DNA from: Bryobacterales bacterium
GTDB taxonomy: Bacteria; Acidobacteriota; Terriglobia; Bryobacterales; UBA6623
Assembly (NCBI GenBank): GCA_965204435.1
Contig: OZ241997.1
Location: forward strand, 5,817,132 to 5,881,131
Length of the DNA: 64,000 nt
Reading direction: 5' to 3'
Shown here piece after piece: positions 2,446-33,754 of this stretch. The notes under the pieces were generated by a model that was not told the DNA's origin, ran no database searches, and saw only the letters and a program-made list of their open reading frames with translations. Position 1 is the stretch's first letter, and every line of letters begins with the position of its first letter. A program made the translations under genes and the position numbers.

Positions 2446-4140
2446 ATGCTGCCGGTGCGGATCATGGCCTGCCTGCTGGCTCTAGCCACTGGTACGGCAG
2501 TGGCGCAGCGATTCGAGGATGCCCTCGCGCGCACTGGAATCGATTTCGTGCACGCCCCGTCGAAGACACCGCGCAAGTACCTGCCGGAGACCATGGGTGG
2601 CGGAGTCGCCCTGTTAGACGCCGATCTTGACGGGCGCTTGGACGTATTCTTCGTCAATGGTGCCGGCCTCTCGTTCCCGCACGCCGAAGGTGTCGAACCG
2701 GACAAGTCCGATCCCAACTATTGGAATCGCCTCTACATCAACCGCGGCGACTGGCGCTTTGAAGATGTCACCGAGACCTACGCGCTGCAGGGGCGAGGCT
2801 ACGGCATGGGTGCGGCTGTGGGCGACTATGACAACGATGGCGACCCTGACCTATTGGTGACGAGTTTGGGCACCGGGGACTCGCCGGCGGCCCAGCTCTA
2901 CCGCAATGACGCCGGGCGCCGCTTTGTTGAGGTCACGCGGGAGGCGGGTATTGATGTACAGGGCTGGGCCACCAGCGCGGGGTTTTTCGACGCCGACAAC
3001 GATGGGGACTTGGACCTGCTGATCCTGCGCTACATGCGGTGGAGATTTGATGTCGACCATCGCTGCGGCATGGAAGCCAGCCACGGCCGCTCGTACTGTC
3101 ACCCGGATCTGTTCCCGCCCGAATCGAACGTGCTCTACCGCAACAACGGGGATGGCACCTTCAGCGATGCGAGTGTTTCCTCGGGCATCGCCGACCATGC
3201 CGGCAAGGGCCTGGGGCTCGCCTTCGCGGACTACGACCTAGATGGCTGGACGGACGTCGCCATTGCGAATGACTCGCACCGGCAGTTCTTGTTCCGCAAT
3301 CTTGGGAATGGCAAGTTTTCCGAAGAGGCGCTCATAGCGGGCACCGCCTTTGACGACCACGGCGCGGAATTCGCCGGCATGGGCATCCTGTTTGAGGATC
3401 TGGATGACGACAGCCTTGCAGACTTGGTCGTTACGACGCTCTCGCAGGAGCGCTATGCGCTCTTCTTTAATGCCGGCGGCGGCTTGTTCGACTACTCCAC
3501 GGGGCGCTCAGGGCTCGGGAGCGCGACCCAGCTGTTCGCGGGTTGGGGTCTCGCTGCATTTGATGCAGATGCAGACGGACGGCGCGAGATCTTCTTCGCC
3601 AACGGACATGTGATGGACAACATCGAGCAGTCCCAGCCACACATCAGCTACCTGCAGCCGCCGCTGCTGTTTAGACTCGACGGCCGCGCTCTGACGGATG
3701 CGTCCGACTCGGCAGGGGCGTTGTTTTCGACCGCATGGGCGAGTCGAGGCGCTGCTGTCGGGGACTTGGACGACAACGGCTTGCCGGACCTAGTCGTGTC
3801 GAACCTCGGCGGCGTGCCGTACGTTGCGCGAAACGTGTCTAGCGGAGGCAACGGCTGGATCGGGGTGCGACTCGAAGGCTGCGCGAGCAACCGCGACGGT
3901 CTTGGTGCCAGTGTCATGCTGGAGGGCGACGACGGCCGGGCCCAGCGCCGGACGGTGACGCGTAGCGGCAGTTACTTGGCTGCTCGGGATCCCCGAGTGT
4001 TCTTCGGAACCGGCCCGCGGCAGGCGGTGGGAAGCCTCACTGTGACTTGGCCGAGCGGAGCTGTGTCGACATTCGAGGACGTGCGAGCCAATGAGGTCAA
4101 CGTGATCCAAGAGACGCCCGGCTGCAATCTGGACCTCTGA
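2446..4140 (+). CDS. CRTAC1-family protein (FG-GAP/VCBS repeats plus ASPIC/UnbV C-terminal domain)
   Basis: Multiple DxDxDG repeats (DADLDGRLD, DYDNDGDPD, DADNDGDLD, DYDLDGWTD, DLDDNGLPD). C-terminal NGWIGVRLEG...RSGSYLAARDPRVFFGTG. Start set at ATG 2446, giving signal-like MLPVRIMACLLALATGTAVA. Confidence 0.85.
   Translation: MLPVRIMACLLALATGTAVAQRFEDALARTGIDFVHAPSKTPRKYLPETMGGGVALLDADLDGRLDVFFVNGAGLSFPHAEGVEPDKSDPNYWNRLYINRGDWRFEDVTETYALQGRGYGMGAAVGDYDNDGDPDLLVTSLGTGDSPAAQLYRNDAGRRFVEVTREAGIDVQGWATSAGFFDADNDGDLDLLILRYMRWRFDVDHRCGMEASHGRSYCHPDLFPPESNVLYRNNGDGTFSDASVSSGIADHAGKGLGLAFADYDLDGWTDVAIANDSHRQFLFRNLGNGKFSEEALIAGTAFDDHGAEFAGMGILFEDLDDDSLADLVVTTLSQERYALFFNAGGGLFDYSTGRSGLGSATQLFAGWGLAAFDADADGRREIFFANGHVMDNIEQSQPHISYLQPPLLFRLDGRALTDASDSAGALFSTAWASRGAAVGDLDDNGLPDLVVSNLGGVPYVARNVSSGGNGWIGVRLEGCASNRDGLGASVMLEGDDGRAQRRTVTRSGSYLAARDPRVFFGTGPRQAVGSLTVTWPSGAVSTFEDVRANEVNVIQETPGCNLDL
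3946..4140 (+). repeat. Left copy of a ~195-bp imperfect direct repeat (functional 3' end of the CRTAC1/ASPIC gene)
   Basis: Aligns by eye at about 80% identity with 6737-6932. The first ~57 nt differ at 2 positions plus one 1-nt indel. Confidence 0.8.
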
Positions 4141-4173
4141 TGAGTGCAGACCATGCTCGTTTGCGCGCAGGCT

Positions 4174-4220
4174 ATGCACAGGTCGGCCAGACGTGGTTCG
4201 CGTGGGGCCGACCTGTGCAT
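4174..4220 (+). terminator. Strong hairpin 34 nt after the ASPIC stop (15-bp perfect stem, 17-nt loop)
   Basis: ATGCACAGGTCGGCC at 4174-4188 is the exact reverse complement of GGCCGACCTGTGCAT at 4206-4220. There is no U-tract, so intrinsic-terminator function is inferred only. Confidence 0.45.
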
Positions 4221-4501
4221 CTTGAGCGTCCCTAGGAACTGTGCGTCGTCCAAGCTAATCCGCTTTCCCAATCATTGCGTAACGGTGGAATCTGGCACGC
4301 GAAATCGACATGGAGACCAAGTTGGTGTACCTGACGCTCTCTAACGGCGTTGTCTGTACTGCCAAGTGCGTCGGCGATCAAGGTTACGTCACGCTGCCTC
4401 TTGGGGAAGACAGGCTCCCTCGATCGGCAGCTTCGGAAGCGATTATTACTACGAGCCGCACCGGATCTTGCCGGCGATCGGTGCCGGGGTGGCAGTGTCT
4501 C

Positions 4502-5473
4502 TCAGGACAATCCCCTGTGACGGCGTACGTTGAGGGCCTTCCATTTGAGAAGCGGCTGGGCCTGGATCCGTTGTTGTAGGGTGGTGTTGGCGGTCAAGAG
4601 CGCCCCGTCGATTTCCCCTCGGTCCAACAGCAGATCTAGAAATGCGAGTTCGGCGTCGGTGAACGGCAGAACATTGGACAGCGCCCGCCTGCATTCTTCA
4701 ACGAGCCGCGCACCGTACTCCGCCAATGCCTCCTGATCTCGCGGTGGGCGGATGCGAAGGGTGGGTCCGAGTTGCCTCACCAGCTCCACGCTGTCGAAGT
4801 CTACATCGTCGGCCGAGACGGTCCGCCAGTCTCTGCGGTTCATACCCCCGTAGACAACGAAAGCAGTGCGGAGCCGTTCCCGCTGCAATTCGAACGCATC
4901 AAAGATGCGATGGCAGTCGAACAGGTCTCTTGCTTGCTGGCGCGAGAGTAGAGCAGAGAGCTTGCCGGCCACGAGCTCATGCAGGTCGAGAATGGGAACA
5001 CGCTTGGCTTGAAGATCCCCGAGCGGGTACGAATCGGCGTGGTGAATCTCCCAGAGCGGCTGCCGGTACATGAAATTGAAGTCCACCTCAATCTTCGCGG
5101 GCTGCCCGGCAAAGTTCGGGTAGCTGAGGCGCCACTTTCCGCCGGCGTGTTCGGCCGGCACTCTCCGGACAGCGAACCCTTCACGGGAAAAGACCGCTTG
5201 GGCCGCTTCCTCGATCCTAAGGCGGTCCGCCAGCATGTCCTCACGCCCTAGTGCACCGATGTAGTTGAGATCGATGTCTACTGACAACCTCGGGAGGTTG
5301 AGGACGAACAGGTTCAAGGCGGTGCCTCCCTTCAATACCCACTTCCCCCTCAGCGACGGGTGTGAGTTCAGGACGTTCAGAAGATGCGCTAGATGGAGAA
5401 CCTTCTCTACCGTACCCTCGTCGAACCCGTCGGGTCTGGCGATACTGCGGATTTCCGCCAGGGGGAATCTCAC
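4502..5473 (-). CDS. abiEii: AbiEii/AbiGii-family nucleotidyltransferase toxin (type IV TA / abortive infection)
   Basis: 323 aa. Contains KGGTALNLF and LSVDIDLNY motifs typical of DUF1814/AbiEii. The start overlaps the upstream antitoxin stop by 4 nt. Confidence 0.85.
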   Translation of the reverse strand: MRFPLAEIRSIARPDGFDEGTVEKVLHLAHLLNVLNSHPSLRGKWVLKGGTALNLFVLNLPRLSVDIDLNYIGALGREDMLADRLRIEEAAQAVFSREGFAVRRVPAEHAGGKWRLSYPNFAGQPAKIEVDFNFMYRQPLWEIHHADSYPLGDLQAKRVPILDLHELVAGKLSALLSRQQARDLFDCHRIFDAFELQRERLRTAFVVYGGMNRRDWRTVSADDVDFDSVELVRQLGPTLRIRPPRDQEALAEYGARLVEECRRALSNVLPFTDAELAFLDLLLDRGEIDGALLTANTTLQQRIQAQPLLKWKALNVRRHRGLS

Positions 5474-6309
5474 AGCGTTTCCCCCCAGGACCGATCTAGG
5501 ATTTCGGCCGGGATCATGAGGTTCCAGTCCTTGACCCAGCGGCAGCCTTTGGGTCGGCCGCGTGTCAGGTAGTGTGGCCGGCGCGGACAGAGTTCGCGCA
5601 GCGCCTCGAGGTGTGCCTCCTCCACCATCAACGGCTTGCGCTGCTGCTCCAGGAAGAATCCCACCTTGGCGGCGGTAGTCGCATTCCCCAGCAGTCGGGT
5701 GTAGGCGATGACCTGATCGAGGTCAAAAAACTCCACAGACTCCAGAGACCGCCAGATCTCCTCCCAGCCTCCGGACAACTCCGGCCGGTCCAGCACATCT
5801 ACCAGAGTGCGCTCGTGGTTAGTCACCCGTAGTGCGACGCCAGAGCGATCATGGCGGGTGACCCCGAACATCGCCTCGCCCTTCGCCAAGAGCGGCAATG
5901 GTGTGGGAGCGCCCCGGAACTCGTGCGACTGGAAGGTGAGCGGGAGCGACCTGCCCGCCGAGACATATACCAGCTGCCAATGGGCCGAGTAGGCCCTGCC
6001 GTGGAATTCCAAGGCCGTGTGATAGGCCAGCACGGAGTCCTCGGTCATCTTGGCCGCCACCAAGTACGGATCAACCGTCATGGAGGCCGCGTCCATGCCC
6101 CAGGGCACGGTCGTATATAGACCGCGACGCACTCGGAGGATGCGGCGCTGCTTGCGGTGATAGGCCAGCAGAGAGTTGCGTGTGTTCGTGTTGCGTGATC
6201 CCCGATCGTGCAGATAACGGTCCAACTCGTCTACCGTAAATACAGGGTGCCGTTCCAAGAAGCGATTGAGCCTGACGGGACCGTTCGTTTGATGATCGGT
6301 CGACATCAC
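5470..6309 (-). CDS. abiEi: AbiEi-family antitoxin / transcriptional regulator
   Basis: 279 aa with an N-terminal wHTH-like segment (FTVDELDRYL) and a C-terminal AbiEi_4-like region (LDRPELSGGWEEIWRSLE). It lies directly upstream of abiEii. Start is GTG 6309 or ATG 6306. Confidence 0.85.
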   Translation of the reverse strand: MMSTDHQTNGPVRLNRFLERHPVFTVDELDRYLHDRGSRNTNTRNSLLAYHRKQRRILRVRRGLYTTVPWGMDAASMTVDPYLVAAKMTEDSVLAYHTALEFHGRAYSAHWQLVYVSAGRSLPLTFQSHEFRGAPTPLPLLAKGEAMFGVTRHDRSGVALRVTNHERTLVDVLDRPELSGGWEEIWRSLESVEFFDLDQVIAYTRLLGNATTAAKVGFFLEQQRKPLMVEEAHLEALRELCPRRPHYLTRGRPKGCRWVKDWNLMIPAEILDRSWGETL

Positions 6310-6316
6310 ACTAGTT

Positions 6317-6345
6317 AATTTAGTTGTTTCCAGTTAATTTGTCAA
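6317..6345 (-). promoter_or_regulatory. Sigma70-like promoter of abiEi-abiEii (TTGACA-17 nt-TAAATT) embedded in short repeats
   Basis: On the minus strand, TTGACA is at 6345-6340 and TAAATT at 6322-6317. It ends about 8 nt before the start codon. AAATTAACT occurs twice, and GTCAAA...TTTGAC form an inverted repeat just upstream. Confidence 0.4.
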
Positions 6346-6415
6346 AAAAGGATTTGACGAAACGTCGAAATACTAGGCAGATTGCTCTGAGTCTCTGACC
6401 TGAAACACCATCATC

Positions 6416-6735
6416 CTATTGTTCCGTGGGCTGACGTTCTACGTAGCTGAGCGCTGCGCGAGCAAGCAAACTGGACCGGGTTTCGCCTTCTCGCGCCGCC
6501 GCCGCGCCCACGATTGCCAGAACGTGCGCTGGACCGTGATGTTGATCCGCCTCGTCTTGCTCTAGCTTGGAGGCATCGACATTCACGAGCGCCCAGATGC
6601 CACCCTTGTAATGCTCGCTCGCTCAGTGCGTTTCGAGCGATTCCCTTGCGGGTCTGGATTCTCCCTCCATCAACAGTCCCTCCAGATGGCAGGAGATGGC
6701 CTCGTGAGTAGATTCGACGGCTTCCTCAAGCGTAT
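6416..6735 (-). pseudogene. hicB: hicB antitoxin remnant (5'-truncated, in-frame TGA)
   Basis: Translates to GDTLEEAVESTHEAISCHLEGLLMEGESRPARESLETH*ASEHYKGGIWALVNVDASKLE...AAAAREGETRSSLLARAALSYVERQ. This matches the HicB N-domain end plus the RHH tail. The N-terminus is cut at the junction with the ASPIC fragment, and the in-frame stop is at 6623-6625. Confidence 0.7.
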
Positions 6736-6736
6736 C

Positions 6737-6932
6737 GCCGGGCGGTGACGCGTAGCGGAAGTTACTTGGCTGCTCGGGACCCCGAGTGTTCTTCGGAACT
6801 GGCCAGCGGCGGGTGCCGGAAAGCCTGACCGTGACCTGGCCGAGCGAAGCGGTGTCGAGGTGCGGGGATCTGCAAGCCAACGCGGTGAACGTGATCTCAG
6901 AGACGCCCGGCTGTAACCCGGTTCCCCGCTGA
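6737..6932 (+). pseudogene. Decayed duplicate of the CRTAC1/ASPIC gene 3' end (right copy of the direct repeat)
   Basis: About 80% identical by eye to 3946-4140. A 1-nt deletion (gggacccc versus gggatcccc) shifts the frame. After the shift it reads PRVFFGTGQRRVPESLTVTWPSEAVS...NVISETPGCNPVPR*. Confidence 0.8.
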
Positions 6933-7033
6933 GTCCCCCTTGCTCTGTTGCGGCCGCTAAGGATTCGCTTGCGCCGAGCCGCGGCCAGCTTGGTAGACTC
7001 TGTTTCGCTTCGCTGATCGCGAGTTGAACCGTA

Positions 7034-8476
7034 ATGCGGTTGATTGTCCGATGCGCCATCGTCGCTGGGCTTCTCGCCGGCCTGCTCCCGGCTGCTTCTC
7101 CTCCGCCAAACGTGATCGTGGTTCTGGTGGACGACTTGGGCTGGATGGACTTGGGTTGCCAGGGCTCGGACTTCTATCGCACCCCGAACATCGACCGCTT
7201 GGCTGCAACGGGCATGCGGTTTACCGATGGTTACGCCTCGTGTGCGGTCTGTTCGCCCACGCGGGCTGCCTTGATGACCGGACGGTCGCCGGCCAGACTT
7301 GGCATCACCGACTGGATCCGTGCTGAGTTCCAACTCAGCGCGCGCCAGTGGCCTAACGTCCGGGACAGATTCGGCTACCACCGCACGGGCACCGCCGATC
7401 GTGAATTGCTCACTCCCGTGAACGAGTTGCAGCTGCCGCACAGCGAGATCACGCTGGCTGAGCTGCTCAAGCCGGTCGGGTACGCCAGCGCCTTCATCGG
7501 GAAGTGGCACCTGGGAGGACGGGGTCACTTGCCGGTCGACCAGGGCTTCGACGAGAACTATGGCGGATGGGACTATGGACAGCCGCCGTCGTACTTCGAC
7601 CCGTTCGTGGAGCTTCCTCGGTTGCCGATGGGCATCCCTACGCTCGCGCCGCGGCAGCCCGGAGAGTATCTGACGGATCGTGAGGCAGACGAGGCCGTCG
7701 CGTTCATCGAGCGCAACAAGGACCGGCCGTTCCTGCTGTATTTGTCGCACTACGCGGTGCATACGCCGATTCAGGCCAAAGAGGACTTGATTGAGGAATA
7801 CGAGCGTCGCCGGGATGGCCAAGGGCAGGACGATGCTGTCTACGCGGCCATGGTGCATAGCGTGGATGACGCCATGGGGAGGTTGCTCGAGACTCTCGAC
7901 CGGACCGGCCTCACTGATCGCACGTTGATCGTGTTCACAGGCGACAACGGCGGGCTTGACCGTCAGGGCCGCCCGACCGAGAACGCTCCGTTGCGCAGCG
8001 GCAAGGGATACGCCTACGAAGGTGGGCTGCGAACGCCTTGGATCGTGCGCTGGCCGGGTGTCACAGAGGCCGGAGCGGTCTCTCCGGAGCCGGTTGCCAG
8101 CATTGATTTATTGCCCACGATTGCCGCAGCTGTCGGAACCAGGCCGCCCGCCGACCGGGAGATCGATGGCATTGACCTAGGCCCGGCCCTGCGGGGCGGC
8201 AAACTCCCTGAGCGGGCGCTCTTGTGGCACTTCCCGCACTACCGGCACGGCCCGGGCCACGATCCGTACTCAGTAGTGCGCAAGGGAGACTGGAAGCTGA
8301 TCCGCTTCTACGATCCGGCCAAGACCGAACTCTACAATCTTGCCGACGACCTCGGCGAAGCCAACGATCTGGCAGCCTCGGAACAGGATCGGGCCGACCA
8401 GCTCTCAGCCCTATTGGACGAGGGTCTCAAAGCCGTCCGCGCACGAATGCCGATCGCGACGCAACAGGCCCCGTGA
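7034..8476 (+). CDS. Sulfatase (Cys-type, arylsulfatase A family)
   Basis: 480 aa. Signal peptide, PNVIVVLVDDLG, and the CSPTRAALMTGR formylglycine signature. Confidence 0.9.
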   Translation: MRLIVRCAIVAGLLAGLLPAASPPPNVIVVLVDDLGWMDLGCQGSDFYRTPNIDRLAATGMRFTDGYASCAVCSPTRAALMTGRSPARLGITDWIRAEFQLSARQWPNVRDRFGYHRTGTADRELLTPVNELQLPHSEITLAELLKPVGYASAFIGKWHLGGRGHLPVDQGFDENYGGWDYGQPPSYFDPFVELPRLPMGIPTLAPRQPGEYLTDREADEAVAFIERNKDRPFLLYLSHYAVHTPIQAKEDLIEEYERRRDGQGQDDAVYAAMVHSVDDAMGRLLETLDRTGLTDRTLIVFTGDNGGLDRQGRPTENAPLRSGKGYAYEGGLRTPWIVRWPGVTEAGAVSPEPVASIDLLPTIAAAVGTRPPADREIDGIDLGPALRGGKLPERALLWHFPHYRHGPGHDPYSVVRKGDWKLIRFYDPAKTELYNLADDLGEANDLAASEQDRADQLSALLDEGLKAVRARMPIATQQAP

Positions 8477-8477
8477 T

Positions 8478-9857: not shown

Positions 9858-10071
9858 GAATCCTCAGGATACCGGTCGTTCCGATTCAAGCCGCGTTCGA
9901 CGGGGCTCGGGCTGCGCAGTTTTGGTGTACCCAGGGCTGCCGATCTCCGCTTGACCAGCTTCATCGCTCCATAGACCGCTCAATTCGGCCCGTGCTAAGT
10001 GAAGGCCTTCTCGAAGAGAGGCGGCACGGTGCCGCTCCCGGCGGGCGTGCCAAGATGGGATTCGTACCTGC

Positions 10072-12895: not shown

Positions 12896-13094
12896 GAGTG
12901 GCTTGATTCTAGCGCGGGTGACTCGCGAGTGCCGGTCTGGCCACGTCAGAGCCAGCGTCATTGCAAGCGGGCGCAGGCCTGAATGGGGTTCGAGTTGAGA
13001 GCATGTCAAAGTCTGCGCTGATCACCCTGGATTCGGGCCGTTGATTGGAGTTGCCCGTCGTTTCGACTCCTGATCAGCGCTCGGTGTCTGTAAG

Positions 13095-16007: not shown

Positions 16008-16015
16008 GAACTGCC

Positions 16016-17434: not shown

Positions 17435-17884
17435 CGGCCCTGTTCTCAGTGCGAGAATGTCAAGCTGAAGCTACGGGTTGCCGGGTGACCGAACGGCGAG
17501 ATCTCCTTGGGTCCCCACTGTGCCCCTCTGCCTCCCTGCTCAGCCTTCGGAGCAAACTTGTCGAGGGCTGCTACCACTTCGGTGAATAGTGTTCGCCGAA
17601 TACTGGCCTGTGCTACGTGGCCCGCGCGACTGCGCTTCTGACTTAGAGAGTGAGAATTAAAGCAACCGGCACTGATGGGGTACTCCTGCCTTCGCCGCGC
17701 TCTTCGGTTAGGGAAACGCTCGGTTGAGAGTCCAACTCACTCTCGCATCACCCAGCGTGGGAACTACGCTTGCAAGATTCGGCTTTCGAGTGAGCAAATG
17801 CGACGCTTGGGCAGCTTGTGGAGCCCAGCCGAGGGCCTTGATTCGGAGCCCACGACGATCTAACCGGGTCTGTATCCTTGTGTT

Positions 17885-19351: not shown

Positions 19352-19645
19352 CCCCAACGGCCCCGAACCAGCCTATGGCCAAGCTCAGTCTTGGGCTGCG
19401 TGATCGAACTGAGGCAACTCTCCAGATTTCAATCATTTAAGCGATTTCGACAAGCTTCGGCTTGGTTCGCTCTTGGACGGTATCACGGCGTTTTCGTCGG
19501 GTCGCTACTGGCTAGGTTGACACCTTCGGCATACTGCCGACAGCCTCTTTGGGTTCGGTCGACCACCGTGCTGGGCGCGTTTGGAACCCAGGCAACTCAA
19601 ACACGCGCTCGTGTGGTGGTATCAGATGTCAAGAGTCTCTTTGCC

Positions 19646-25441: not shown

Positions 25442-25453
25442 GAGGCCCTCCTG

Positions 25454-25580
25454 TCGGTGGCGGTAGTCTGACTTCAGCTCACGGCGGGCTCTCGCAGGTG
25501 GCGAGCCACATCCCGCCAGAGACTCATGTTGGCAGGTGCGGGCTGCTGTTTGCGAGCCCGGGGAAAGGCTGGCCCGGGCT
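25454..25580 (-). pseudogene. higB: higB toxin remnant (frameshifted, stop lost, N-terminus missing)
   Basis: Minus-strand frames give VSGGMWLATCE (compare VSGNWRITFE) and then, after a 1-nt shift, ...SDYRH (compare EDYH*). These are followed by CGA where TGA is expected, then AGGAGG and the higA ATG. Only ~230 nt separate higA from the next gene. Confidence 0.45.
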
Positions 25581-25673
25581 CGCGTGCACGCTCGCCCCGG
25601 AAAGGCGGGCCGGTGATACAGTGGATTGCGACGGATGCGGGAGCGGCGAACACATGGTCAGCCAGGCCACCGC

Positions 25674-28600
25674 ATGCCGGTCTTGGTGTTGGCGATCGTC
25701 GGTGCCGTCTGGCCGGCTACGGCCGAGGTCGACTTCGGCGAGCAGGTCTTCCCGATTCTGCAACGGTCTTGCCTCGGCTGCCACGGGCCGGACCAGCAAC
25801 TTCGCGGTTTACGGCTCGATGCGAGAGCGTCCGTTGTGGGCGCCTCCGCGCCGCGCTCCATAGTGGTGCCAGGAAGCGCCCAAGACAGCGAGCTGTACCG
25901 GCGAATTGCCGGTCTCAGTGATGGCCCGCGCATGCCGATGGGCGGCACCCTCTCTGCCGTTGAGATCGACACGATTCGCCAGTGGATCGAGGCCGGAGCG
26001 GACTGGCCGGAGGGCGCTGGGGCGGAGGAAGTCAGACAGCACTGGGCGTTCGTAGCTCCCGAGCGCCCGCTGCCGCCGGGCGATCGGTCTCTCCACCCGA
26101 TTGACGCGTTCGTTCGAGCTGGGCTCGCTGACGCTGGCTTGGAACCTATGCCGCGAGCGAGCGACGCTGCCCTCCTTCGGCGCGTTAGTTTGGACCTGAC
26201 AGGCCTGCCCCCGGCTGTGGAGGAGTTGGAAGAGTTCCAAGAGGAACCGGACTTCGGGGCACTGGTCGGGCGCTTGTTGGCCTCCCCTCACTACGGGGAA
26301 CGCTGGGGCCGCCTCTGGTTGGATGCCGCCCGGTACGCCGATTCCGATGGCTACGAAAAGGACATGCCGCGCCAGGTGTGGTTCTACCGCGATTGGGTCG
26401 TGGACGCGCTGAACCGGGATCTTCCGTATGACCGCTTCGTGGTCGAGCAGATTGCTGGCGACTTGCTCCCGGGAGGGACCCAGCAGCAGCTTATTGCAAC
26501 CGGCTACCTGCGCAACTCCATGGTCAACGAGGAGGGCGGGACAGACCCCGAACAGTTCCGCATGGAGGCGCTATTCGACCGCATGGATGCCATCGGCAAG
26601 GGCATTTTGGGCCTCACCATCCAATGTGCGCAGTGCCATTCGCATAAATACGACCCTCTCACGCACGACGAGTACTACCGCCTGTTTGCGTTCCTCAACA
26701 ATGCCGACGAGGCCAAGGTGGCGGTCTACACTGCCGAGGATGCTCAAGTTCGCGAGGCGGTGATCGACGAGATCCGTGCCATCGAAGACGAACTGATGGC
26801 ATCCAATCCCGACTGGCAGTCACGCATGGCCTCGTGGGAGCGGGAAGTGCGCGGCAACCAGCCGCAGTGGAAAGTGCTGCATCCCGAGGTGGTCGACCTT
26901 TCCACGGGGGGCCAGCGCTACCTGCTGCAGAGCGATGGCTCGCTGCTGGCACAGGGTTACGCACCGACCGAGCATGTGGCCGAGTTCGCCGCGCAAACGA
27001 GCCTGCCAGACATCACAGCCGTCCGGCTCGAGGTACTGACCGACCCCAATCTCCCGCTCGGCGGGCCAGGACGGTCTGTGTACGGCACCGGCGCCCTAAG
27101 CGAGTTCCGGTTGCGGGCCGCGCCCGCGGACGACCCGACCTCGCAGCAAGACGTCTGGATCCGGACCTCCAGCGCGGACATCGACTTGCCCGAGCGCAGC
27201 TTGGACCCGAAAGTCTTCCCTCACAAGGAGGGCTCGGAACGCTTCACCGGACCGATCCACTTCGCCTACGACGACTGCGTCGACACGGCTTGGGAACTCT
27301 TTGCCGGGCATGGCCGCAGCAACCAGCCGCGCAAGGCTGTCTTTGTCTTTGACCGGCCGATCAGGCACAGTTCCGGCACGCTGCTGACGTTCTTTCTGGA
27401 TCAGAGCCACGGAGGGTACGACAGCAACGTTGGCCAAAACAACAATCTCGGCCGGATCCGCCTCTCGGTGACCAACGCCGACGATCCGGTGGCGGATCCG
27501 CTGCCCGCACGAGTCCGCGCCATCGTGGAGCAGGGTCGCGATGGCCGCACGCCCCAAGAGGACAGGGAGGTGTTCAGCTTCTGGCGGACCACAGTTCCGG
27601 CTTGGGCCGGTGCGAACGAGCGCATCGAGCAGGCTTGGGGGCGCTACCCGCAAGGCAACACGCAACTAGTCCTTCAGCGGCGTTCGGAACCGCGCCAGAC
27701 CCACCTGCTGCAGCGCGGAGATTTCCTAGAGCCAGCGCATGAGGTCAAGCCGGGCGTGCCCGAGTTCCTCCATGCCTTGGGCGCAAGCGGCCGCCCTCCC
27801 CGCCTAGCGTTCGCCGAGTGGCTCGTCGACCGCGGCGCTCCCACAACAGCCAGAGTCATCGTGAACCGTATTTGGCAGGCGTACTTCGGCACTGGCTTGG
27901 TCGCAACCGCCGAGGATTTCGGGATGCAAGGGGATTTGCCGTCGCATCCAGAGCTGCTCGACTGGCTGGCGGTGGAGCTGATGGACAGCGGTTGGAGCTT
28001 GAAACACATCCACCGCTTGATCGTGACCTCCGGGACGTATCAGCAGGCGTCGCGCCTGACTGATCAGGCCAGCGCCGTCGATCCGGACAACCGCTTGCTT
28101 TCGCGCGGCCCGCGAGTGCGGGCCGACGCGGAGATCGTTCGGGACATCGCGCTAGCCGCGAGCGGCCTGCTGAGCCATCAGGTCGGCGGCCCACCGGTGC
28201 ACCCGCCTGCCCCGGAGTTGCTGTTCAAGCCACCCATCAGCTTCTCCGAAAAACCGTGGCCCGCCGCGGCGGGAGAGGACCGCTACCGGCGGGCGCTCTA
28301 TACGTTCCAGTACATTTCGGCACCATATCCGGCCTTCGAAGTCTTCGACGCGCCCAACGGGTCCACCGCCTGTGTGAGGCGCGGCCGCTCGAACACCCCG
28401 TTGCAGGCGCTCACTACCCTGAACGAGGAGCTTTTCATGGCAGCCGCGCGCGCACTGGCGAGGCGAACCGTCGCGGCGGCAACGGACGAGCGGGAGCGAC
28501 TCGACCACGCCTTCCGTTCGTGCTTGTCTAGGGAGGTCCGATCCGATGAAGCAGAGCTCCTGCTGGAGTTGCTGCGAAAGACGCGGGAGCAGCTCGCTGC

Positions 28601-28730
28601 CGGCCTCCTGGATGCGCGCGAACTGACCGCCGCCGATTCCGACGAGGGTCCCAGCCCGGATGATGAGGCAGCGTGGACGGTGTTGGCGAGGGCGCTGCTC
28701 AATCTCGACGAGACCATTACGAAGCAATGA
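25674..28730 (+). CDS. PSCyt/DUF1549/DUF1553 protein
   Basis: Start set at ATG 25674 (MPVLVLAIVGAVWPATA). Contains CLGCHG, a CAQCHSHKYDP motif and a DUF1553-like C-terminus. Confidence 0.85.
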   Translation: MPVLVLAIVGAVWPATAEVDFGEQVFPILQRSCLGCHGPDQQLRGLRLDARASVVGASAPRSIVVPGSAQDSELYRRIAGLSDGPRMPMGGTLSAVEIDTIRQWIEAGADWPEGAGAEEVRQHWAFVAPERPLPPGDRSLHPIDAFVRAGLADAGLEPMPRASDAALLRRVSLDLTGLPPAVEELEEFQEEPDFGALVGRLLASPHYGERWGRLWLDAARYADSDGYEKDMPRQVWFYRDWVVDALNRDLPYDRFVVEQIAGDLLPGGTQQQLIATGYLRNSMVNEEGGTDPEQFRMEALFDRMDAIGKGILGLTIQCAQCHSHKYDPLTHDEYYRLFAFLNNADEAKVAVYTAEDAQVREAVIDEIRAIEDELMASNPDWQSRMASWEREVRGNQPQWKVLHPEVVDLSTGGQRYLLQSDGSLLAQGYAPTEHVAEFAAQTSLPDITAVRLEVLTDPNLPLGGPGRSVYGTGALSEFRLRAAPADDPTSQQDVWIRTSSADIDLPERSLDPKVFPHKEGSERFTGPIHFAYDDCVDTAWELFAGHGRSNQPRKAVFVFDRPIRHSSGTLLTFFLDQSHGGYDSNVGQNNNLGRIRLSVTNADDPVADPLPARVRAIVEQGRDGRTPQEDREVFSFWRTTVPAWAGANERIEQAWGRYPQGNTQLVLQRRSEPRQTHLLQRGDFLEPAHEVKPGVPEFLHALGASGRPPRLAFAEWLVDRGAPTTARVIVNRIWQAYFGTGLVATAEDFGMQGDLPSHPELLDWLAVELMDSGWSLKHIHRLIVTSGTYQQASRLTDQASAVDPDNRLLSRGPRVRADAEIVRDIALAASGLLSHQVGGPPVHPPAPELLFKPPISFSEKPWPAAAGEDRYRRALYTFQYISAPYPAFEVFDAPNGSTACVRRGRSNTPLQALTTLNEELFMAAARALARRTVAAATDERERLDHAFRSCLSREVRSDEAELLLELLRKTREQLAAGLLDARELTAADSDEGPSPDDEAAWTVLARALLNLDETITKQ

Positions 28731-30127
28731 CTGCACCTGACACGGCAAACCCGATCGCCCGCCGCTGGTTTCTCGAGCGCTGCGGATTCGGGCTGGGCAC
28801 GGCGGCACTGGCGCACCTGTTGCGCGGCGACTCGCGCGCGGCGACCCGCCTGCCGCACTTCGCGCCCAAGGCCAAGAATGTCATCTTTCTCTTCCAAGCG
28901 GGTGGGCCGAGCCATCTAGAGCTCTTCGACTACAAGCCGGAGCTGGCAAAGTTCGACGGCACGCTCCCGCCCCCGGATCTGCTCGAGGGCTACCGGGCGG
29001 CGTTCATTGATCCGAATTCCAAGCTCCTAGGCCCGAAGTACAAGTTTCGGAGGGCAGGGCAGAGTGGTTTCGAGATCTCCGAACTCCTGCCGCATATGGC
29101 GACCGTGGTCGATGATGTCGCCTTTGTCCGTTCGACCGTCACGGACGCATTCAATCACGCACCGGCGCAGCTTCTCATGAGCACCGGCGCCCAGCAGTTC
29201 GGCAGACCCAGCATGGGAGCTTGGGTGACCTACGGACTTGGCAGCGAGTCAGAGGACCTGCCGGGCTTCATCGTTCTGAACTCGTCGGACTCGGGGCCAA
29301 GCGCGGGTACTGCTCTGTGGGGCGCGGGCTTCCTGCCCACGGTGCACCAAGGCGTGCCGTTCCGCTCCGGCGGGGAACCGGTCTTGTTCCTTTCCAACCC
29401 GCTGGGAATCACCGACCGTGTCCAACGCGACACTCTCGATGCGATCAACGGGATGAACCGCATCCAGCTCGAACGAATGGGGGATCCGGAGATCCAGACC
29501 CGCATTCGGTCATTCGAACTCGCGTTTCGCATGCAGAGCGCCGCTCCAGCCCTGATGGACATCAGCAACGAGGCCCCCGAGACGCTGGAGCTGTACGGGG
29601 CCGAGCCGGGCAAGGCCTCGTTTGCCAACAACTGCCTGCTGGCCCGACGGCTGGTGGAGCAGGGGGTGCGGTTCGTGCAGCTCTACCACGAGGCTTGGGA
29701 CCACCATGCCAACTTGACCAAGGGAATCCAGCAAGTCGCCAAGGATGTCGACCAAGGCTCGGCAGCGTTGATCAAGGATCTCAAGCGGCGCGGCTTGCTG
29801 GATGAGACCTTGGTTCTGTGGGGCGGGGAGTTCGGGCGAACGCCCATGACCCAGGACACCAATGGGATTGGCGACGGGCGCGATCACCATCCGGGCGCCT
29901 TCACAACGTGGATGGCCGGAGCCGGGATCCGCCGAGGCGTTACCTTGGGGCGGACTGACGAACTAGGCTTCCGCACGGTCGAGGACAAGGTTCACGTCCA
30001 CGACCTGCACGCGACCGTGCTGCACCTGCTTGGCTTCGACCACACCAAGCTAACCTACCGCTTCCAAGGTCGTGACTTCCGGCTGACGGACGTGAGTGGA
30101 GAGGTGGTCGAGAAACTGCTGGTGTGA
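28727..30127 (+). CDS. DUF1501 protein (TAT-exported, sulfatase-fold)
   Basis: ATG 28727 overlaps the upstream TGA (ATGA). ARRWFLERCGFGLGTAALA signal and GGEFGRTP...GRDHHP. Confidence 0.85.
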   Translation: MTAPDTANPIARRWFLERCGFGLGTAALAHLLRGDSRAATRLPHFAPKAKNVIFLFQAGGPSHLELFDYKPELAKFDGTLPPPDLLEGYRAAFIDPNSKLLGPKYKFRRAGQSGFEISELLPHMATVVDDVAFVRSTVTDAFNHAPAQLLMSTGAQQFGRPSMGAWVTYGLGSESEDLPGFIVLNSSDSGPSAGTALWGAGFLPTVHQGVPFRSGGEPVLFLSNPLGITDRVQRDTLDAINGMNRIQLERMGDPEIQTRIRSFELAFRMQSAAPALMDISNEAPETLELYGAEPGKASFANNCLLARRLVEQGVRFVQLYHEAWDHHANLTKGIQQVAKDVDQGSAALIKDLKRRGLLDETLVLWGGEFGRTPMTQDTNGIGDGRDHHPGAFTTWMAGAGIRRGVTLGRTDELGFRTVEDKVHVHDLHATVLHLLGFDHTKLTYRFQGRDFRLTDVSGEVVEKLLV

Positions 30128-30211
30128 GTTGCTGTAGGGCACTCTTGCGACACGGCCCGTCGGTCCGGCACGAAGGTAAGCACCGACGAGTTCTTCAGAC
30201 GACTGGGTGCC
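29993..30211. repeat. Left copy of the duplicated convergent junction (intact DUF1501 3' end plus decayed SMP-30 3' end)
   Basis: Colinear with 30561-30691 plus 32867-32945. An ungapped stretch of 88 nt across the DUF1501 stop has 67 matches by hand count. Confidence 0.75.
30132..30211 (-). pseudogene. Remnant of an SMP-30/gluconolactonase gene 3' end
   Basis: The minus strand reads VLTFVPDRRAVSQECPTA, against MLPFLPAQGPCRESAS* for the intact gene at 32891. The DNA block GGGCCGTGTCGC is identical. The stop codon is replaced by CAG. Confidence 0.5.
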
Positions 30212-30253
30212 GCTCATCGCCCGCAATCCCTCGAAGCGGCATGGCGCCCCGTT

Positions 30254-30484
30254 CTATTCGCCCCACGATGCTGCGGCCTCCCATCCTGTCAGGTCGCTTT
30301 CCACGTGCGGGGCGCGTTCGTATCCCAATCGGTCTTGCTCCTCCAGTCTCACTATGTGAAGACGTCGCAGGTGTTCCTTCAGAGCGTCTCGGATCAGAGC
30401 GGAGCGGTTCGTGCCAGCCCGACTAGCGGCTTCGTCAGCTCTAGCGAGAAGGTCGGCGTCGAGAACTACTTGGACTGTCTTCAC
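30254..30484 (-). CDS. CopG/RHH-family antitoxin-like protein with no adjacent toxin
   Basis: MKTVQVVLDADLLARADEAASRAGTNRSALIRDALKEHLRRL...EEQDRLGYERAP...WEAAASW from GTG 30484 (the track starts at 30505). This is the pattern seen in MazF/PemK-partner antitoxins. Confidence 0.75.
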   Translation of the reverse strand: MKTVQVVLDADLLARADEAASRAGTNRSALIRDALKEHLRRLHIVRLEEQDRLGYERAPHVESDLTGWEAAASWGE

Positions 30485-30560
30485 AACCTGCAAAATAGTC
30501 CACACCCAACGCTATAACTTGCTTGTAGGTATTCATGGGGTCATCGATCCATAGCTGCTA

Positions 30561-30691
30561 CACGTCTCTCAGCCGCTCCGCGCTGCAGAAGCAACGTGCT
30601 TGGCAAGGGTGTCCTAGCGACGCCAAGTTGACCTACCGCTTCTAGGGACGCGACTGCCGGCTGCCGGGTGTCGGTGGGTCGTTGTTCTAGA
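30561..30691 (+). pseudogene. Decayed DUF1501 3' end fragment, split by the IS (continues at 32867-32890)
   Basis: About 73-76% identical, ungapped, to 30043-30127. Contains an in-frame TAG and indels further upstream. Confidence 0.75.
30686..30691. repeat. Target-site duplication TCTAGA (left)
   Basis: The same hexamer directly flanks both IS termini. The paralogous uninterrupted site at 30108-30113 reads TCGAGA. Confidence 0.75.
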
Positions 30692-30838
30692 CCCAACTTA
30701 CCCCGACCACTTTTTGCGCTATGGGCCTTTGCGTGCCTGAGGCCCGGCACCTAACCTCTTCGCATTCAATAGCTTAGCCTCCGAGCACTACTGGCTATCC
30801 CTCCCAATGCGCCCAAAATGACCCCTCGAAAACCGTTT

Positions 30839-30936
30839 TTCCTAGTCATACAATATGACTTGCAGCAGTTGTCATTGATCCATTTATCTGCTATCATTGT
30901 TGCCAGTTAGAACCTGCTGGTTCCTAGTCATACAAT
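30839..30936. repeat. IS-internal 16-bp direct repeat pair TTCCTAGTCATACAAT (30839-30854 and 30921-30936)
   Basis: Exact repeat 82 bp apart. Each copy contains TACAAT. The second overlaps the transposase ATG at 30935. Confidence 0.8.
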
Positions 30937-32707
30937 GCACATCACCTCCTCTTTCGCCCGCAAGTCCCCCTGCCACCTCTTGCGCGAATCCTACTGGCGC
31001 AACGGCAAGGTCCACAAACGCACTCTCGCCAATCTCTCCGCTCTCCCCCAGCCCCTCATCGACCTGCTCAAGGCCGCCCTCGACCGCCAACTCCCTCTCG
31101 GCAGCCCCCACGCGCCCGTCCAGGCCGGGCGCGCGCGCCAGCACGGCGCCGTCTCCGCCCTGCTCGGCCTCGCCCGCAGCCTGCGCCTCGACCGCCTGCT
31201 CTTCCACCAACCCTGCCGCCAGCGCTCGCTGGCCCTCGCCCTGATCCTCGCCCGCCTGCTCAAGCCCGGCGCCAAGCTGCGCCTGGAACGCGAACTCGGC
31301 CCCGCCGGCCAAACCACCCTCGCCCACCTGCTCGACATCCGCAACGCACCCGTGGACGAACTCTACGACGCCATGGACTGGCTGCTCAAGCGCCAGCCCG
31401 CCATCGAGCGCAAGCTCGCCAAACTCCACCTCCGGCAAGGCGGCCTGGCCTTGTACGACCTCTCCTCCAGCTACGTCGAGGGCTCCTGCTGCCCGCTGGC
31501 CAAACGCGGCTACTCGCGCGACCATCGCTCCGACCGCCCCCAGATCACCTACGGCCTGCTGTGCAATCAGGACGGCTGCCCGATCGCGGTCGAGGCCTTC
31601 GCCGGCAACACCGCCGACCCCAGCACGCTCAGCAGCCAAGTCAACAAGTTGCGGCAACGCTTCGGCTTGCAACGGCTGGCCCTGGTCGGCGACCGCGGCA
31701 TGCTGGCCCAGACGCGCATCGCGGGCGAGCTGCAGCCAGCCGAGCTGGACTGGATCACGGCCCTGCGCCACGACAGCATTCGCAAGCTGGCTGCCGAGGG
31801 GCACTTCCAGCCCTCGCTGTTTGACACGCACGGCTTGGCCAGCATCACCGCGCCGGACTTCCCCGACGAGCGCCTGCTGGTGTGCTACAACCCGCTGGTG
31901 GCCGCCGAGCGGCGGCGCAAGCGCGCCGACTTGCTGGCCAGCACCGAGGCCGACCTGGCCGGGATGGCCAGCGCCTACGCGGCCGGCAAGATCGACCGCG
32001 ACGAGTTCAACCGGCGCTTGGGCACGCTGCGCAGGCGCAAGATGGGCAAGCACTTGCAGTGGTGCTTCGACGAGCACACGGAGGCCTTCAGCTCGACGCG
32101 CGACGAGGAGTCGATCGCGGCCGAGGCGCGCCTGGACGGCTTCTACGTGGTGCGCACCAGCCTGGCGGAGCAGGATCTGGACGATGCCGGGGTGGTGCGC
32201 GCCTACAAGAGCCTGGCGCGGGTGGAGCGGGCTTTCCGCTCACTCAAGACGAGCGGGCTGCGGGTGCGCCCGATCTTCCACTGGAAAGAGACGCGGGTGC
32301 GGGCGCACCTGCTGGTGTGCATGCTGGCGTACTACGTGGAATGGCACCTGCGGCGCCAGCTGGCGCCGCTGTTGTTCAGCGAGGAAGGCGAGCCCCAGCA
32401 TGCGGGCGGGCCGGTCGGGCCAGTGCAGCGCAGTGAGGCTGCCAAGCGTAAGGATCGCACGCGCCGGACGGCTGATGGGAGCCTGCCGGTGCAGAGCCTG
32501 GCAGACCTGTTGGCGGGGCTGGGCACGCTCAGCGCAGTGGAGTTGAAATACGCACAGGTGCCCGGCTATGCGGTGCCCACGCTGAGCGAGCTGGAGCCGT
32601 TACACGAGCGCGTGTTCGAGCTCCTGGGCTTCCAGCCCCACCCGGCACCGGCGCTGAGCGAGCCACCAGACAACCCAGGCAATGCGCCGCCCAAGACGCC
32701 AACCTAG
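30935..32707 (+). CDS. IS1634-family (IS4 superfamily) DDE transposase
   Basis: 590 aa. N-terminal YWRNGKVHKRTLANLS is typical of IS1634-type transposases. LYDLSSSY and LVGDRGM are candidate DD residues, and YKSLARVERAFRSLK is the Y-R-E-K-type motif. Confidence 0.85.
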   Translation: MHITSSFARKSPCHLLRESYWRNGKVHKRTLANLSALPQPLIDLLKAALDRQLPLGSPHAPVQAGRARQHGAVSALLGLARSLRLDRLLFHQPCRQRSLALALILARLLKPGAKLRLERELGPAGQTTLAHLLDIRNAPVDELYDAMDWLLKRQPAIERKLAKLHLRQGGLALYDLSSSYVEGSCCPLAKRGYSRDHRSDRPQITYGLLCNQDGCPIAVEAFAGNTADPSTLSSQVNKLRQRFGLQRLALVGDRGMLAQTRIAGELQPAELDWITALRHDSIRKLAAEGHFQPSLFDTHGLASITAPDFPDERLLVCYNPLVAAERRRKRADLLASTEADLAGMASAYAAGKIDRDEFNRRLGTLRRRKMGKHLQWCFDEHTEAFSSTRDEESIAAEARLDGFYVVRTSLAEQDLDDAGVVRAYKSLARVERAFRSLKTSGLRVRPIFHWKETRVRAHLLVCMLAYYVEWHLRRQLAPLLFSEEGEPQHAGGPVGPVQRSEAAKRKDRTRRTADGSLPVQSLADLLAGLGTLSAVELKYAQVPGYAVPTLSELEPLHERVFELLGFQPHPAPALSEPPDNPGNAPPKTPT

Positions 32708-32866
32708 TCACCAACGGCCTGTTCGAAATGCGGCTGTTCCGCCCAATGGCGTACGCAGCAGGGACTCGACGAAATCACCTAAGTGACTGATCCATCGCGA
32801 GGTACATCAGCCCAAGGTTGGAGCTTACGATGGCGTACAGCCATAAACTAGTTGGGGTAAGTTGGG

Positions 32867-32872
32867 TCTAGA
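32867..32872. repeat. Target-site duplication TCTAGA (right)
   Basis: See the left copy at 30686-30691. Confidence 0.75.
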
Positions 32873-32890
32873 AACTGCCGGCGTGAGCTG

Positions 32891-33754
32891 CTACGAGGCG
32901 CTTTCGCGACACGGCCCTTGGGCAGGCAGAAACGGAAGCATCGGCTCAAGCGGATGCTCTACCGCACCGATGTGCCAGCCACCAAGGTTCGCGAAGTAGA
33001 TCTCGTCTTTGCGCAGGGCGACGTTGGTCGGCCGGTTCATCCATTCTGCTAACGGGTCTCGATACAGCACTTCGAATCGGTCGTCAGTTCGGATCACGCC
33101 AATTTGGTCAGGAGAGTAGTAGGCAACATAGATATTGCCTTCGGTGTCTAGGGCGACTCCGTCGGGTACGGTACCAGACTCCAAGGGAATCTGGCGTACC
33201 GGTTCCATGCTCGCCACTTGCGGGCCATCGATTCGAAACGCGAGGATGCTGGGAGCGGTGCTCTCGACCACGTAGAGCAGCGAGTTGCCATGGTCGACGA
33301 AGACACCGTTGGTGAACCGGAACGGCCCGGGGTGTGCGCAGAGCGTCTCGCCTTCTGGAGTTATGGCGAATAGCCGACCGCTATGTCGCGTGGGATGGTA
33401 CGTGCCCGACTCGCTGAAGAACAGATTGCCCTTTGCGTCGAACGCACAGTCGTTCGGGTTGTCGAATTGACCCGTCGAAATCGCTTCGACGCCGCCGTTC
33501 GGTTCGATCCGCAAGACTTCGTTGCGACCTGCGTCGCAGGCGTAGACGGCACCAGCTTGGTCAGAGCACAGTCCGAGGACAAAGCCTCCGGTCTGCGCTG
33601 TAGCCTCGAACGAACCAGTCGTCGGATCAATGCGGTAGATTGCTCCCGCCTCGCTACCGCACACCAGCGAGCCGTCGGCTGCAAAGCACAGGCCCTCGGG
33701 GTGGTCCAAGCCGGCACACACGAATCGGACGATCTCAGGGGAAGCGGGTGTCAT
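32891..33754 (-). CDS. SMP-30/gluconolactonase/LRE-family beta-propeller (putative sugar lactonase)
   Basis: 287 aa. Repeated propeller blades with PEGLCFAADGSL, NDCAFDAKGNLFF, TNGVFVD and PDGVALDTEGNIYVA. Confidence 0.85.
   Translation of the reverse strand: MTPASPEIVRFVCAGLDHPEGLCFAADGSLVCGSEAGAIYRIDPTTGSFEATAQTGGFVLGLCSDQAGAVYACDAGRNEVLRIEPNGGVEAISTGQFDNPNDCAFDAKGNLFFSESGTYHPTRHSGRLFAITPEGETLCAHPGPFRFTNGVFVDHGNSLLYVVESTAPSILAFRIDGPQVASMEPVRQIPLESGTVPDGVALDTEGNIYVAYYSPDQIGVIRTDDRFEVLYRDPLAEWMNRPTNVALRKDEIYFANLGGWHIGAVEHPLEPMLPFLPAQGPCRESAS

Follow-up and report, generated by a model that had tools for sequence, protein, structure and literature searches.

Doubled host gene ends around two accessory cassettes of a Bryobacterales bacterium: a displaced allele at locus 1 and probable scars of additive recombination

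A 64-kb stretch of contig OZ241997.1 from a Bryobacterales bacterium (64,000 nucleotides, referred to here as the window; G+C 63%) contains two loci at which a small cargo of toxin-antitoxin (TA) genes is bracketed by two copies of the end of a host gene. Locus 1 carries an AbiE cassette and a hicB remnant behind a CRTAC1-type gene, and locus 2 carries what is left of an RHH-PemK pair behind a DUF1501 gene. The initial annotation described both as an intact gene end, a cargo and a decayed copy of the same end, and proposed comparison with relatives as a way to find filled and empty sites; both states were found at both loci, and the doubled ends are confirmed, as empty relatives have a single one. 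At locus 1, the working gene end appears to be the imported copy and the orphan the resident one, and each locus probably records additive recombination with a diverged relative.

The nearest genomes are metagenome-assembled Bryobacterales, several of which apparently come from sponge microbiomes, judging by isolate and sample names. Relatives of locus 1 fall, by protein identity, at 93-97% (L002, L006 and L024) and at 77-87% (L003, L007, L004 and L005), and one contig, L001, is 98.5-99.9% identical to the window. An exact-protein look-up matched the SGL protein of locus 2 and returned no match for the window's AbiEii, RHH and sulfatase products, probably owing to start-codon choice.

Locus 1 begins with the host gene, which encodes a CRTAC1-type FG-GAP/ASPIC-UnbV protein of 564 amino acids (2446-4140, plus strand; Pfam FG-GAP_3 and UnbV_ASPIC), identical at 100% to P0241. 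Its final ~195 nt and ~30 nt downstream constitute copy A (3946-4170, plus strand), and copy B lies beyond the 2.6-kb cargo (6736-6955, plus strand). The initial repeat finder paired 3991-4145 with 6780-6934 at 79% identity, a match that alignment and BLAST extended to the full copies at ~81% over 220 nt. Copy A is composite, consisting of block C (3946-4012), which is near-identical to copy B, followed by block D' (4013-4140) and a tail (4141-4170) that represent a divergent allele; the final ~43 codons of the host gene, termed A-type, are of this divergent kind.

Just past copy A stands an inverted repeat, or hairpin (4174-4220), found as a self-BLAST match to its own reverse complement, and then a beta-lactamase-family gene fragment (4298-4417, plus strand), a piece of cargo debris with 80% nucleotide identity to L085 11268-11387, inside a gene with a Beta-lactamase Pfam match. 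The AbiE cassette occupies 4484-6401 on the minus strand and comprises the AbiEii toxin gene (4502-5473), the AbiEi antitoxin gene (5470-6309) and the upstream promoter region, as assigned by Pfam and PADLOC. The pair is intact in the window, with PADLOC values of 1.3e-114 for AbiEi and 6.8e-102 for AbiEii and a Pfam value of 1.3e-30 for AbiEii, and the two adjacent genes, for an AbiEi antitoxin and an AbiEii nucleotidyltransferase, overlap by 4 nt in the arrangement of AbiE, here a putative type IV toxin-antitoxin/abortive infection system. Abutting copy B is a hicB pseudogene (6412-6741, minus strand; HicB_lk_antitox match and translation), which lacks its first ~27 codons and its hicA partner and carries an in-frame stop at 6623-6625. 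Beyond copy B, the native downstream neighbour is a sulfatase gene (7034-8476, plus strand), identified by Pfam and by alignments to L003, L004, L007, L088 and L014, and convergent with it is an M20 peptidase gene (8478-9857, minus strand; Pfam). Between this peptidase gene and the next gene (9858-10040), L003 and L007 carry ~1.2 kb of extra sequence, and L004 is collinear with the window.

The filled structure of locus 1 is shared by L002, L006 and L024. In the empty form, one gene end is followed directly by the sulfatase gene, as found in L003, L007, L004, L005 and L088.

The empty genome L088 bears on which of the two copies is native. Its ASPIC region is 94% identical in nucleotides to that of the window, and its ASPIC protein (P0247) is 94% identical to the window's, with a C-terminus that is the sequence encoded by the supposedly decayed copy B. 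Over block D, the functional end of L088 is matched at 126 of 128 positions by the orphans of L002 and L024 (98.4%) and at 121 of 128 by that of the window (94.5%), against 99 of 128 for the window's intact copy A and 77-78% for the intact A copies overall. Over the 25 nt past the stop codon, identity to L088 is 92-96% for the orphans (24/25 at best) versus 44% for the A copies (11/25). Between the reconstructed ancestral copies A and B, block C has about 1 difference in 67 sites and block D about 29 in 128 (Fisher p = 3e-5), as counted by hand on the alignment with L088, and copy A switches from L088-like to divergent sequence at ~4012. Uniform decay after a duplication would not produce divergence so uneven between the two blocks. 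The two copies are different alleles that had already diverged by the time of the event, the orphan being recognisable as a barely changed resident-type allele and the working gene end as the divergent, imported-looking one; this holds even if L088 is itself a secondary excision product. The described order of intact end, cargo and second copy thus stands, and the label of decayed duplicate does not, since the second copy is a lightly damaged displaced allele: the window version has a 1-bp deletion between 6779 and 6780, and the frame is open in L002 and L024.

These observations bear directly on the possibility that the repeat was made in place, through a widely staggered break that copied ~150-500 bp of target, as in insertion with long target duplication (ILTD) or through an IS1634/IS1549-type transposase acting in trans, the unselected copy decaying thereafter. 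In empty genomes both repeats do correspond to a single sequence, as the formal definition in PMC2853133 requires, and locus 2 is old enough for decay alone to give its 73% identity. Under duplication and decay, however, the selected copy is expected to remain native-like and the free copy to drift; locus 1 already contradicts this, with an orphan that matches the functional allele at 94-98% and a functional copy that is divergent, and the counts of 1/67 and 29/128 argue the same way. An origin by target duplication is accordingly held to be very improbable.

Within the clade, several close relatives encode 565-aa proteins with SPDPR-type ends, like those of more distant relatives, many clade members have such native-type ends, and the A-type NLDL end is unusual; in every case that could be followed (window, L002, L006, L024 and L089), the A-type tail is followed by cargo. 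Among sequences that are otherwise 89-97% identical (P0241-P0264), the ASPIC/CRTAC1 protein varies strongly over its final ~40 residues, in a mosaic pattern with at least five tail types (NLDL, SPDPR, SLDL, SLDR and SLDP), a diversity that suggests repeated recombination at the gene end.

The joint between cargo and orphan was resolved by a three-way comparison of the window with intact hicB (L090-L092) and with the resident gene (L088). The intact hicA-hicB homologues, obtained by a metagenome scan, are 86-89% identical in nucleotides to the hicB pseudogene, and the transition from hicB to the host gene falls in a 6-bp microhomology, CGCCGG, common to both (6736-6741). The joint cuts hicB after about codon 27, eliminating the first ~27 codons and hicA. 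It is an illegitimate, microhomology-mediated joint and not the border of a defined element; a cargo gene truncated in this manner is a further point against target duplication. Beside the intact hicAB of L090, a 300-nt stretch from the 5' part of a PSCyt-type gene is directly repeated (710-1009 and 1407-1706; 96% identity, 697 bp apart), which may represent another partial gene duplication near a TA cassette, in a low-quality contig with Ns.

A joint of this kind could also result from two steps, in which a large segment with a whole second allele was imported or tandemly duplicated, creating a merodiploid, and a microhomology deletion then removed the stretch between hicB and position 3946 of the second copy of the gene. 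Orphans do shrink by later deletion, as seen in the internally deleted orphan fragment of L084 and in the loss of pemK via CGCCGA at locus 2; younger cases have longer repeats (524 bp at 93%, versus 225 bp at 81% and 144 bp at 73%); and transformation is reported to yield merodiploids (PMC3784515). Such a history is nevertheless improbable, for it requires two rare events where one suffices, no full second gene copy is present among the four filled relatives, and the orphan starts at an identical point in all filled genomes at both loci.

The explanation considered reasonably probable is that each locus is the scar of additive recombination, in which the gene end of a diverged relative and its cargo entered through one homologous crossover and one illegitimate joint. 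The incoming fragment, from another lineage, would have carried a conserved host gene's 3' end together with the accessory genes that directly followed it in the donor. One side of the fragment would recombine by homology within the host gene, and the other would be attached illegitimately, via a short microhomology, at a point upstream of the gene end already present in the recipient. The gene would then finish with the donor end, giving the "intact" copy, while the recipient end would be stranded past the cargo as an orphan, giving the "decayed" copy, to be eroded later by point mutation and deletion. Two routes could lead to this outcome. In one, a linear fragment undergoes homology-facilitated illegitimate recombination (HFIR); in the other, the fragment is first closed into a circle at a microhomology and then inserted by a RecA-type single crossover (Campbell-type insertion). 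The switch at ~4012, 67 bp inside the repeat, would most simply be the crossover of the circular route, although it could have been inherited from the donor allele. TA cassettes would often be carried along, since accessory DNA is rich in them and they resist loss; the duplication forms no part of their own mobility. The order of these steps, the route of DNA entry and a shared origin for locus 2 are presumed.

Several points weigh against this explanation. The expected donor configuration, consisting of an A-type end, the cargo and intact hicBA with no orphan, was not recovered: the one extra A-type contig, L089, ends 270 nt past the gene, and the close AbiEi homologues retrieved in the donor search lie in contexts unrelated to the host gene. 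Sliding-window identity against L003, L004, L005 and L007 revealed no clear discontinuity that would mark an upstream crossover. The empty state of L088 may have arisen secondarily, by excision, and not be ancestral, and a route of DNA entry, by competence or otherwise, has to be presumed for these bacteria. The dN/dS between the locus 1 copies, 0.33-0.39, is intermediate and not decisive, and the locus 2 orphan, with its stops and indels, is too old and decayed for an allele test. Experimental HFIR, moreover, usually deletes recipient DNA rather than duplicating it. A parsimony test of polarity at locus 1 is suggestive only.

The arrangement of block C invites another explanation, in which locus 1 is what remains of an integrase-mediated island that used block C as its attachment core and supplied a substitute for the gene end, with the integrase and the bulk of the island lost to later deletion. 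Block C, almost the same in the two copies and continued by a divergent substitute end, has the classical layout of such islands, several tail alleles circulate in the clade, and the L006 cargo holds three tandem tyrosine recombinases. The recombinase trio, however, sits with IS66 and Uma2 in a secondary insertion that destroys abiEii, and the far flank is hicB cut at a 6-bp microhomology, which indicates illegitimate joining and not the arm of an attachment site. No recombinase gene is present in either window cargo, as had been noted at the outset; no integrase is found in the locus 1 cargos of the window, L002 and L024, in any version of the locus 2 cargo (L081 and L084 included) or among the open reading frames (ORFs) tested in L014; and the locus 2 repeats lack an identical core. 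An island origin is therefore regarded as unlikely.

The insertion in L006 spans 7 kb (12444-19530, corresponding to window 4640-5251) and includes an IS66-family transposase, a D12-methylase fragment, a Uma2 endonuclease gene and the three tyrosine recombinases, which resemble a recombinase-in-trio element. At the same site, L024 has only the Uma2 segment and L002 a deletion, leaving the window with the sole intact abiEii.

It is conceivable, though doubtful, that block C, the substitute end and the cargo together form a self-perpetuating, integrase-free mobile islet. Recombination between the two copies of block C would excise a circle, and after transfer a RecA single crossover would reinsert it at the same motif, stranding the resident end. 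Compatible with this are the near-identity of block C, the allele switch exactly at its end, an empty relative with an orphan-type end, and filled and empty states that conflict with flank relationships: on the left of locus 1, L088 is closer to the window than the filled L024 is, and on the right it is more distant. If true, such a cycle would provide a general route by which TA and defence cassettes pass between related genomes, with a borrowed piece of host gene serving as a portable attachment site.

Locus 2 follows the same plan in a more eroded form. Its host gene encodes a DUF1501 protein of 466 amino acids (28727-30127, plus strand; Pfam 7e-159; gene calls in L001 and L081-L084), and a convergent gene encodes an SMP-30/gluconolactonase-like (SGL) protein (32891-33754, minus strand; Pfam), identical in L001. 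Copy A (30044-30187, plus strand), delimited by alignment, combines the final 84 nt of the intact DUF1501 gene, a short spacer and ~55 nt of a decayed fragment of the convergent SGL 3' end. Copy B is split, with the decayed DUF1501 end, containing two stop codons, on the left (30622-30691, plus strand) and the spacer and functional SGL 3' end on the right (32873-32945, plus strand), both placed by alignment. With the insertion sequence (IS) at 30692-32866 removed, the two copies are ~73% identical.

Between the copies lies a cargo of 0.43 kb, with versions of 0.4-0.8 kb across genomes. It comprises an RHH (CopG-type) antitoxin gene, now orphan (30254-30505, minus strand; Pfam RHH_1), for which the NCBIfam RelB-like match is far under the cut-off (20.5 vs 50 bits), and the first ~20 codons of a pemK/mazF toxin gene (30195-30265, minus strand), recognised by alignment with L084. 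The RHH-PemK/MazF type II pair is thus not intact in the window, where RHH is kept and pemK is reduced to ~20 codons. The complete RHH-PemK cassette, 837 bp long, survives in L084; pemK was lost after about codon 20 in the window and L081, through a deletion between CGCCGA motifs at the end of copy A and inside pemK. The site is filled in L081 and L084, and in the empty L082 and L083 the convergent stop codons stand 4 nt apart.

The L084 orphan contains an extra, internally deleted DUF1501 fragment that derives from ~210-250 nt upstream of the stop, and for this reason the locus 2 orphan must once have been at least 250 nt long, its present repeat borders being partly a product of erosion. On the left, at DUF1501/PSD, the nearest match to the window is the empty L082 (93% and 88%), and on the right, at SGL, it is the filled L081 (86%). 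Since the flanking genes disagree on relationships, a breakpoint of homologous exchange is placed at the cargo.

The RHH frame is intact in the window, L081 and L084, though the toxin is lost in the first two, and this could reflect selection for the orphan antitoxin, for example in anti-addiction or as a regulator. The right border of copy A (30178-30187) falls in the loop of a perfect hairpin at the SGL 3' end (window 32938-32957), which reads GCATCGGC-TCAA-GCCGATGC in the empty site and may be fragile or a site of template switching. Two paralogous PSCyt/PSD + DUF1501 pairs (13095-17434 and 25626-30127) lie ~12.7 kb apart with 70-74% nucleotide identity, members of a family usually associated with Planctomycetes and present here in an acidobacterium.

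An IS1634-family insertion sequence (30692-32866, plus strand; transposase 30935-32707; NCBIfam NF033559, 313 bits; terminal inverted repeats) is nested in copy B of locus 2, flanked by a 6-bp target duplication, TCTAGA, at 30686-30691 and 32867-32872. Its presence, together with the unusually long and variable target duplications of IS1634 itself, had led the initial annotation to suggest, speculatively, a link with the long duplications. That presence and the capacity of IS1634 and IS1549 to create repeats of 8-514 bp (PMC2266710) count in favour of target duplication. The family normally duplicates 5-6 bp, and only IS1634 and IS1549 have been reported in the longer range. The IS is absent from the near-identical L001, which already carries the RHH cargo and both repeats; because of this, it is a later insertion into the orphan copy and a bystander. 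Terminal inverted repeats above shuffled background were found in none of three cargos (window locus 1, the L084 form of locus 2 and L014), in a test in which the IS served as the positive control and its repeats were detected. Long duplication mediated by IS1634 and a transposon-like nature of the cargo were both rejected on these grounds. Identity between L001 and the window is 99.9% to the right of the IS site and 98.5% to the left, hinting at a recent recombination boundary there, and the match of L001 (17668-18388) ends at window position 22400, with a further strain-specific difference just upstream.

Recurrence of the layout was sought in 85 sequences totalling 1.65 Mb, by listing direct repeats 60-700 bp long with a separation below 9 kb and filtering candidates by ORF context. 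Two further cases emerged, extending the pattern beyond the two original loci as had been surmised. In the Bryobacterales contig L014, copies of 524 bp with 92.7% identity surround a 1.9-kb cargo between the sulfatase and M20 peptidase genes, a junction without an insert in the window (8476/8478). The 35 coding differences are distributed 8:5:22 over the codon positions and the orphan-specific changes 1:2:11 (p = 7e-4), with a dN/dS of 0.25 and an orphan frame open for 172 codons. In L059, from Poribacteria, the copies measure 371 bp with 81% identity, and the differences are distributed 11:17:47 (p = 2e-7), with one stop codon. Because the differences lie mainly at third codon positions, most of the divergence in both cases arose while both sequences were functional genes in separate lineages. 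This bias is a further argument against target duplication, and together with the pre-diverged alleles of locus 1 it leaves unsupported the proposal that the ends were duplicated and then decayed.

The cargos of these two cases also speak against a mechanism devoted to TA or defence genes, as had been proposed. The L014 cargo gave no PADLOC or NCBIfam matches and a single Pfam match, DUF7689, with no recognisable TA or defence genes, and its four tested ORFs showed no recombinase domains in Pfam or NCBIfam; the L059 cargo holds no recognisable TA system. Conversely, a universal association with TA insertions was rejected, as PIN-PhdYeFM in L082 and HTH-HipA in L081 occupy the dihydrodipicolinate synthase (DHDPS)/SGL junction without duplicated host sequence. 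The AbiE cassette behaves as a discrete 1.9-kb unit (4484-6401), 81-89% identical copies of which lie in unrelated contexts in L085 (5907-7823) and L087 (5905-7793), without flanking repeats and with an abiEii-side boundary equal to window 4484. Because nearby TA insertions and AbiE cassettes elsewhere carry no duplication, the duplication is not a property of TA mobility. AbiEi relatives at 80-89% identity include one source-labelled Spirochaetaceae, and those at 69-72% are labelled Caldilineaceae and Planctomycetota.

A second hot spot is the DHDPS/SGL junction (window 34094-35299; L082 7035-7663; L081 6284-7887; L084 8001-8004). In L084 it has no insert and the two genes overlap by 4 nt; in L001 it holds a sulfatase gene and an AAA_16 ATPase gene without duplicated host sequence. 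In L082 and L001, though not in L081, other sequence stands in place of the final ~35 nt of the DHDPS gene.

Many of the other direct-repeat matches in the scan lay in tandem arrays of query-gene homologues, and the candidates checked by ORF context, save L014 and L059, proved to be paralogs or intragenic or non-coding repeats. The window does contain DUF1501/PSCyt-PSD paralog pairs (repeat families D2, D3, D5 and D6). A generic paralog remnant was rejected for the loci described here, as the orphans share post-stop and neighbour-gene sequence with the adjacent gene end and empty sites are single-copy; resolution into remnants of paralog deletion, once named as the outcome that would refute the pattern, was not borne out.

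The two loci thus probably belong to an established type of recombination scar, with no new mechanism of transposition involved, and their conceptual novelty is modest. Their value lies elsewhere. The spread of chromosomal TA and small defence cassettes that lack mobility genes of their own is poorly understood, and these loci offer a clear natural example, complete with filled sites, empty sites and junction sequence, of cassettes arriving via ordinary host recombination with no involvement of their own machinery. They also add a refinement, in that orphan gene ends beside accessory cassettes can be displaced alleles. Fragments taken for decayed duplicates may be displaced resident alleles, whose divergence is consequently unusable for dating the insertion, and the "long target duplication" cases of restriction-modification systems merit re-examination for allelic repeats. 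In practice, an orphan gene end with allele-like, third-position-biased divergence provides a signature for genome scans.

Among known systems, IS1634 and IS1549 produce repeats whose lengths (8-514 bp; PMC2266710) are in the range of those seen here, but the IS of the window lies inside one repeat and not between the repeats, it made a 6-bp duplication, and the cargos tested lack inverted-repeat ends. A closer parallel in layout is ILTD, described for restriction-modification genes (Nobusato et al. 2000; Furuta, Abe & Kobayashi 2010, PMC2853133), and the architecture cannot therefore count as a new, under-appreciated pattern, as the initial annotation had suggested. ILTD likewise involves a small addiction-type gene set without mobility genes, enclosed by direct repeats of tens to ~420 bp that often cover gene 3' ends. 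The two repeats, each longer than 30 bp, align to a single empty-genome sequence at locus 1 (L003, L004, L007 and L088), at locus 2 (L082 and L083) and for L014 (the window), and the inserts are shorter than 20 kb and free of mobility genes, the recombinases and IS66 of L006 being secondary. Instead of restriction and modification genes, however, the inserts contain AbiEi/AbiEii with a hicB pseudogene, or RHH with a pemK remnant. Repeats formed by ILTD are identical at their formation, whereas those described here are 73-93% identical and, in locus 1, L014 and L059, are pre-existing alleles, on the evidence of the locus 1 alignments and of third-position bias in L014 and L059. The authors of the ILTD work suggested double-strand breaks by the restriction enzyme, and no such enzyme is present here.

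Prophage e14 and phage 21 integrate in icd of Escherichia coli and bring a substitute 3' end. As in that system, an incoming alternative 3' end keeps the gene intact, the resident end is displaced, and a near-identical segment marks the exchange. The loci of the window differ in that there is no integrase and no phage or island body, and the far junction is a microhomology joint in a truncated cargo gene.

The combination of one homologous and one microhomology junction (6 bp here), with foreign DNA trapped beside a conserved gene, is shared with HFIR and with the single crossover of recircularised DNA. In an E. coli assay for HFIR, 56 of 60 events involved a partly degraded plasmid that had recircularised and entered by a single crossover, with duplication of 109-950 bp of the lacZ end (PMC3240628). 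The CGCCGG joint lies within the 3-10 bp of microhomology at which HFIR forms its illegitimate junction, and the segment contiguous with the cargo differs from the resident allele, with the A-type end at 77% and the orphan at 94-98% identity to L088. The HFIR studies (de Vries & Wackernagel 2002; Prudhomme et al. 2002; PMC3240628) concern laboratory events in competent or conjugating model bacteria, whereas the present case would be its counterpart in natural, uncultured Bryobacterales genomes.

An HFIR-like mechanism has also been proposed for the displacement of effector-immunity modules of type VI secretion systems and for Rhs orphan arrays (PMC5361080, citing Jackson 2009 and Poole 2011). 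The host genes here are not polymorphic toxins, as in Rhs and contact-dependent inhibition (CDI) systems, but ASPIC/CRTAC1 and DUF1501 genes of unknown role and an M20 peptidase gene that is likely metabolic; the displaced end carries no toxin or immunity function, and the cargo is unrelated to the host gene. The likeness to C-terminal displacement in Rhs and CDI systems lies in the outcome, for in both a new 3' end with its linked cargo replaces the working end of the gene, and the old end persists downstream as an orphan.

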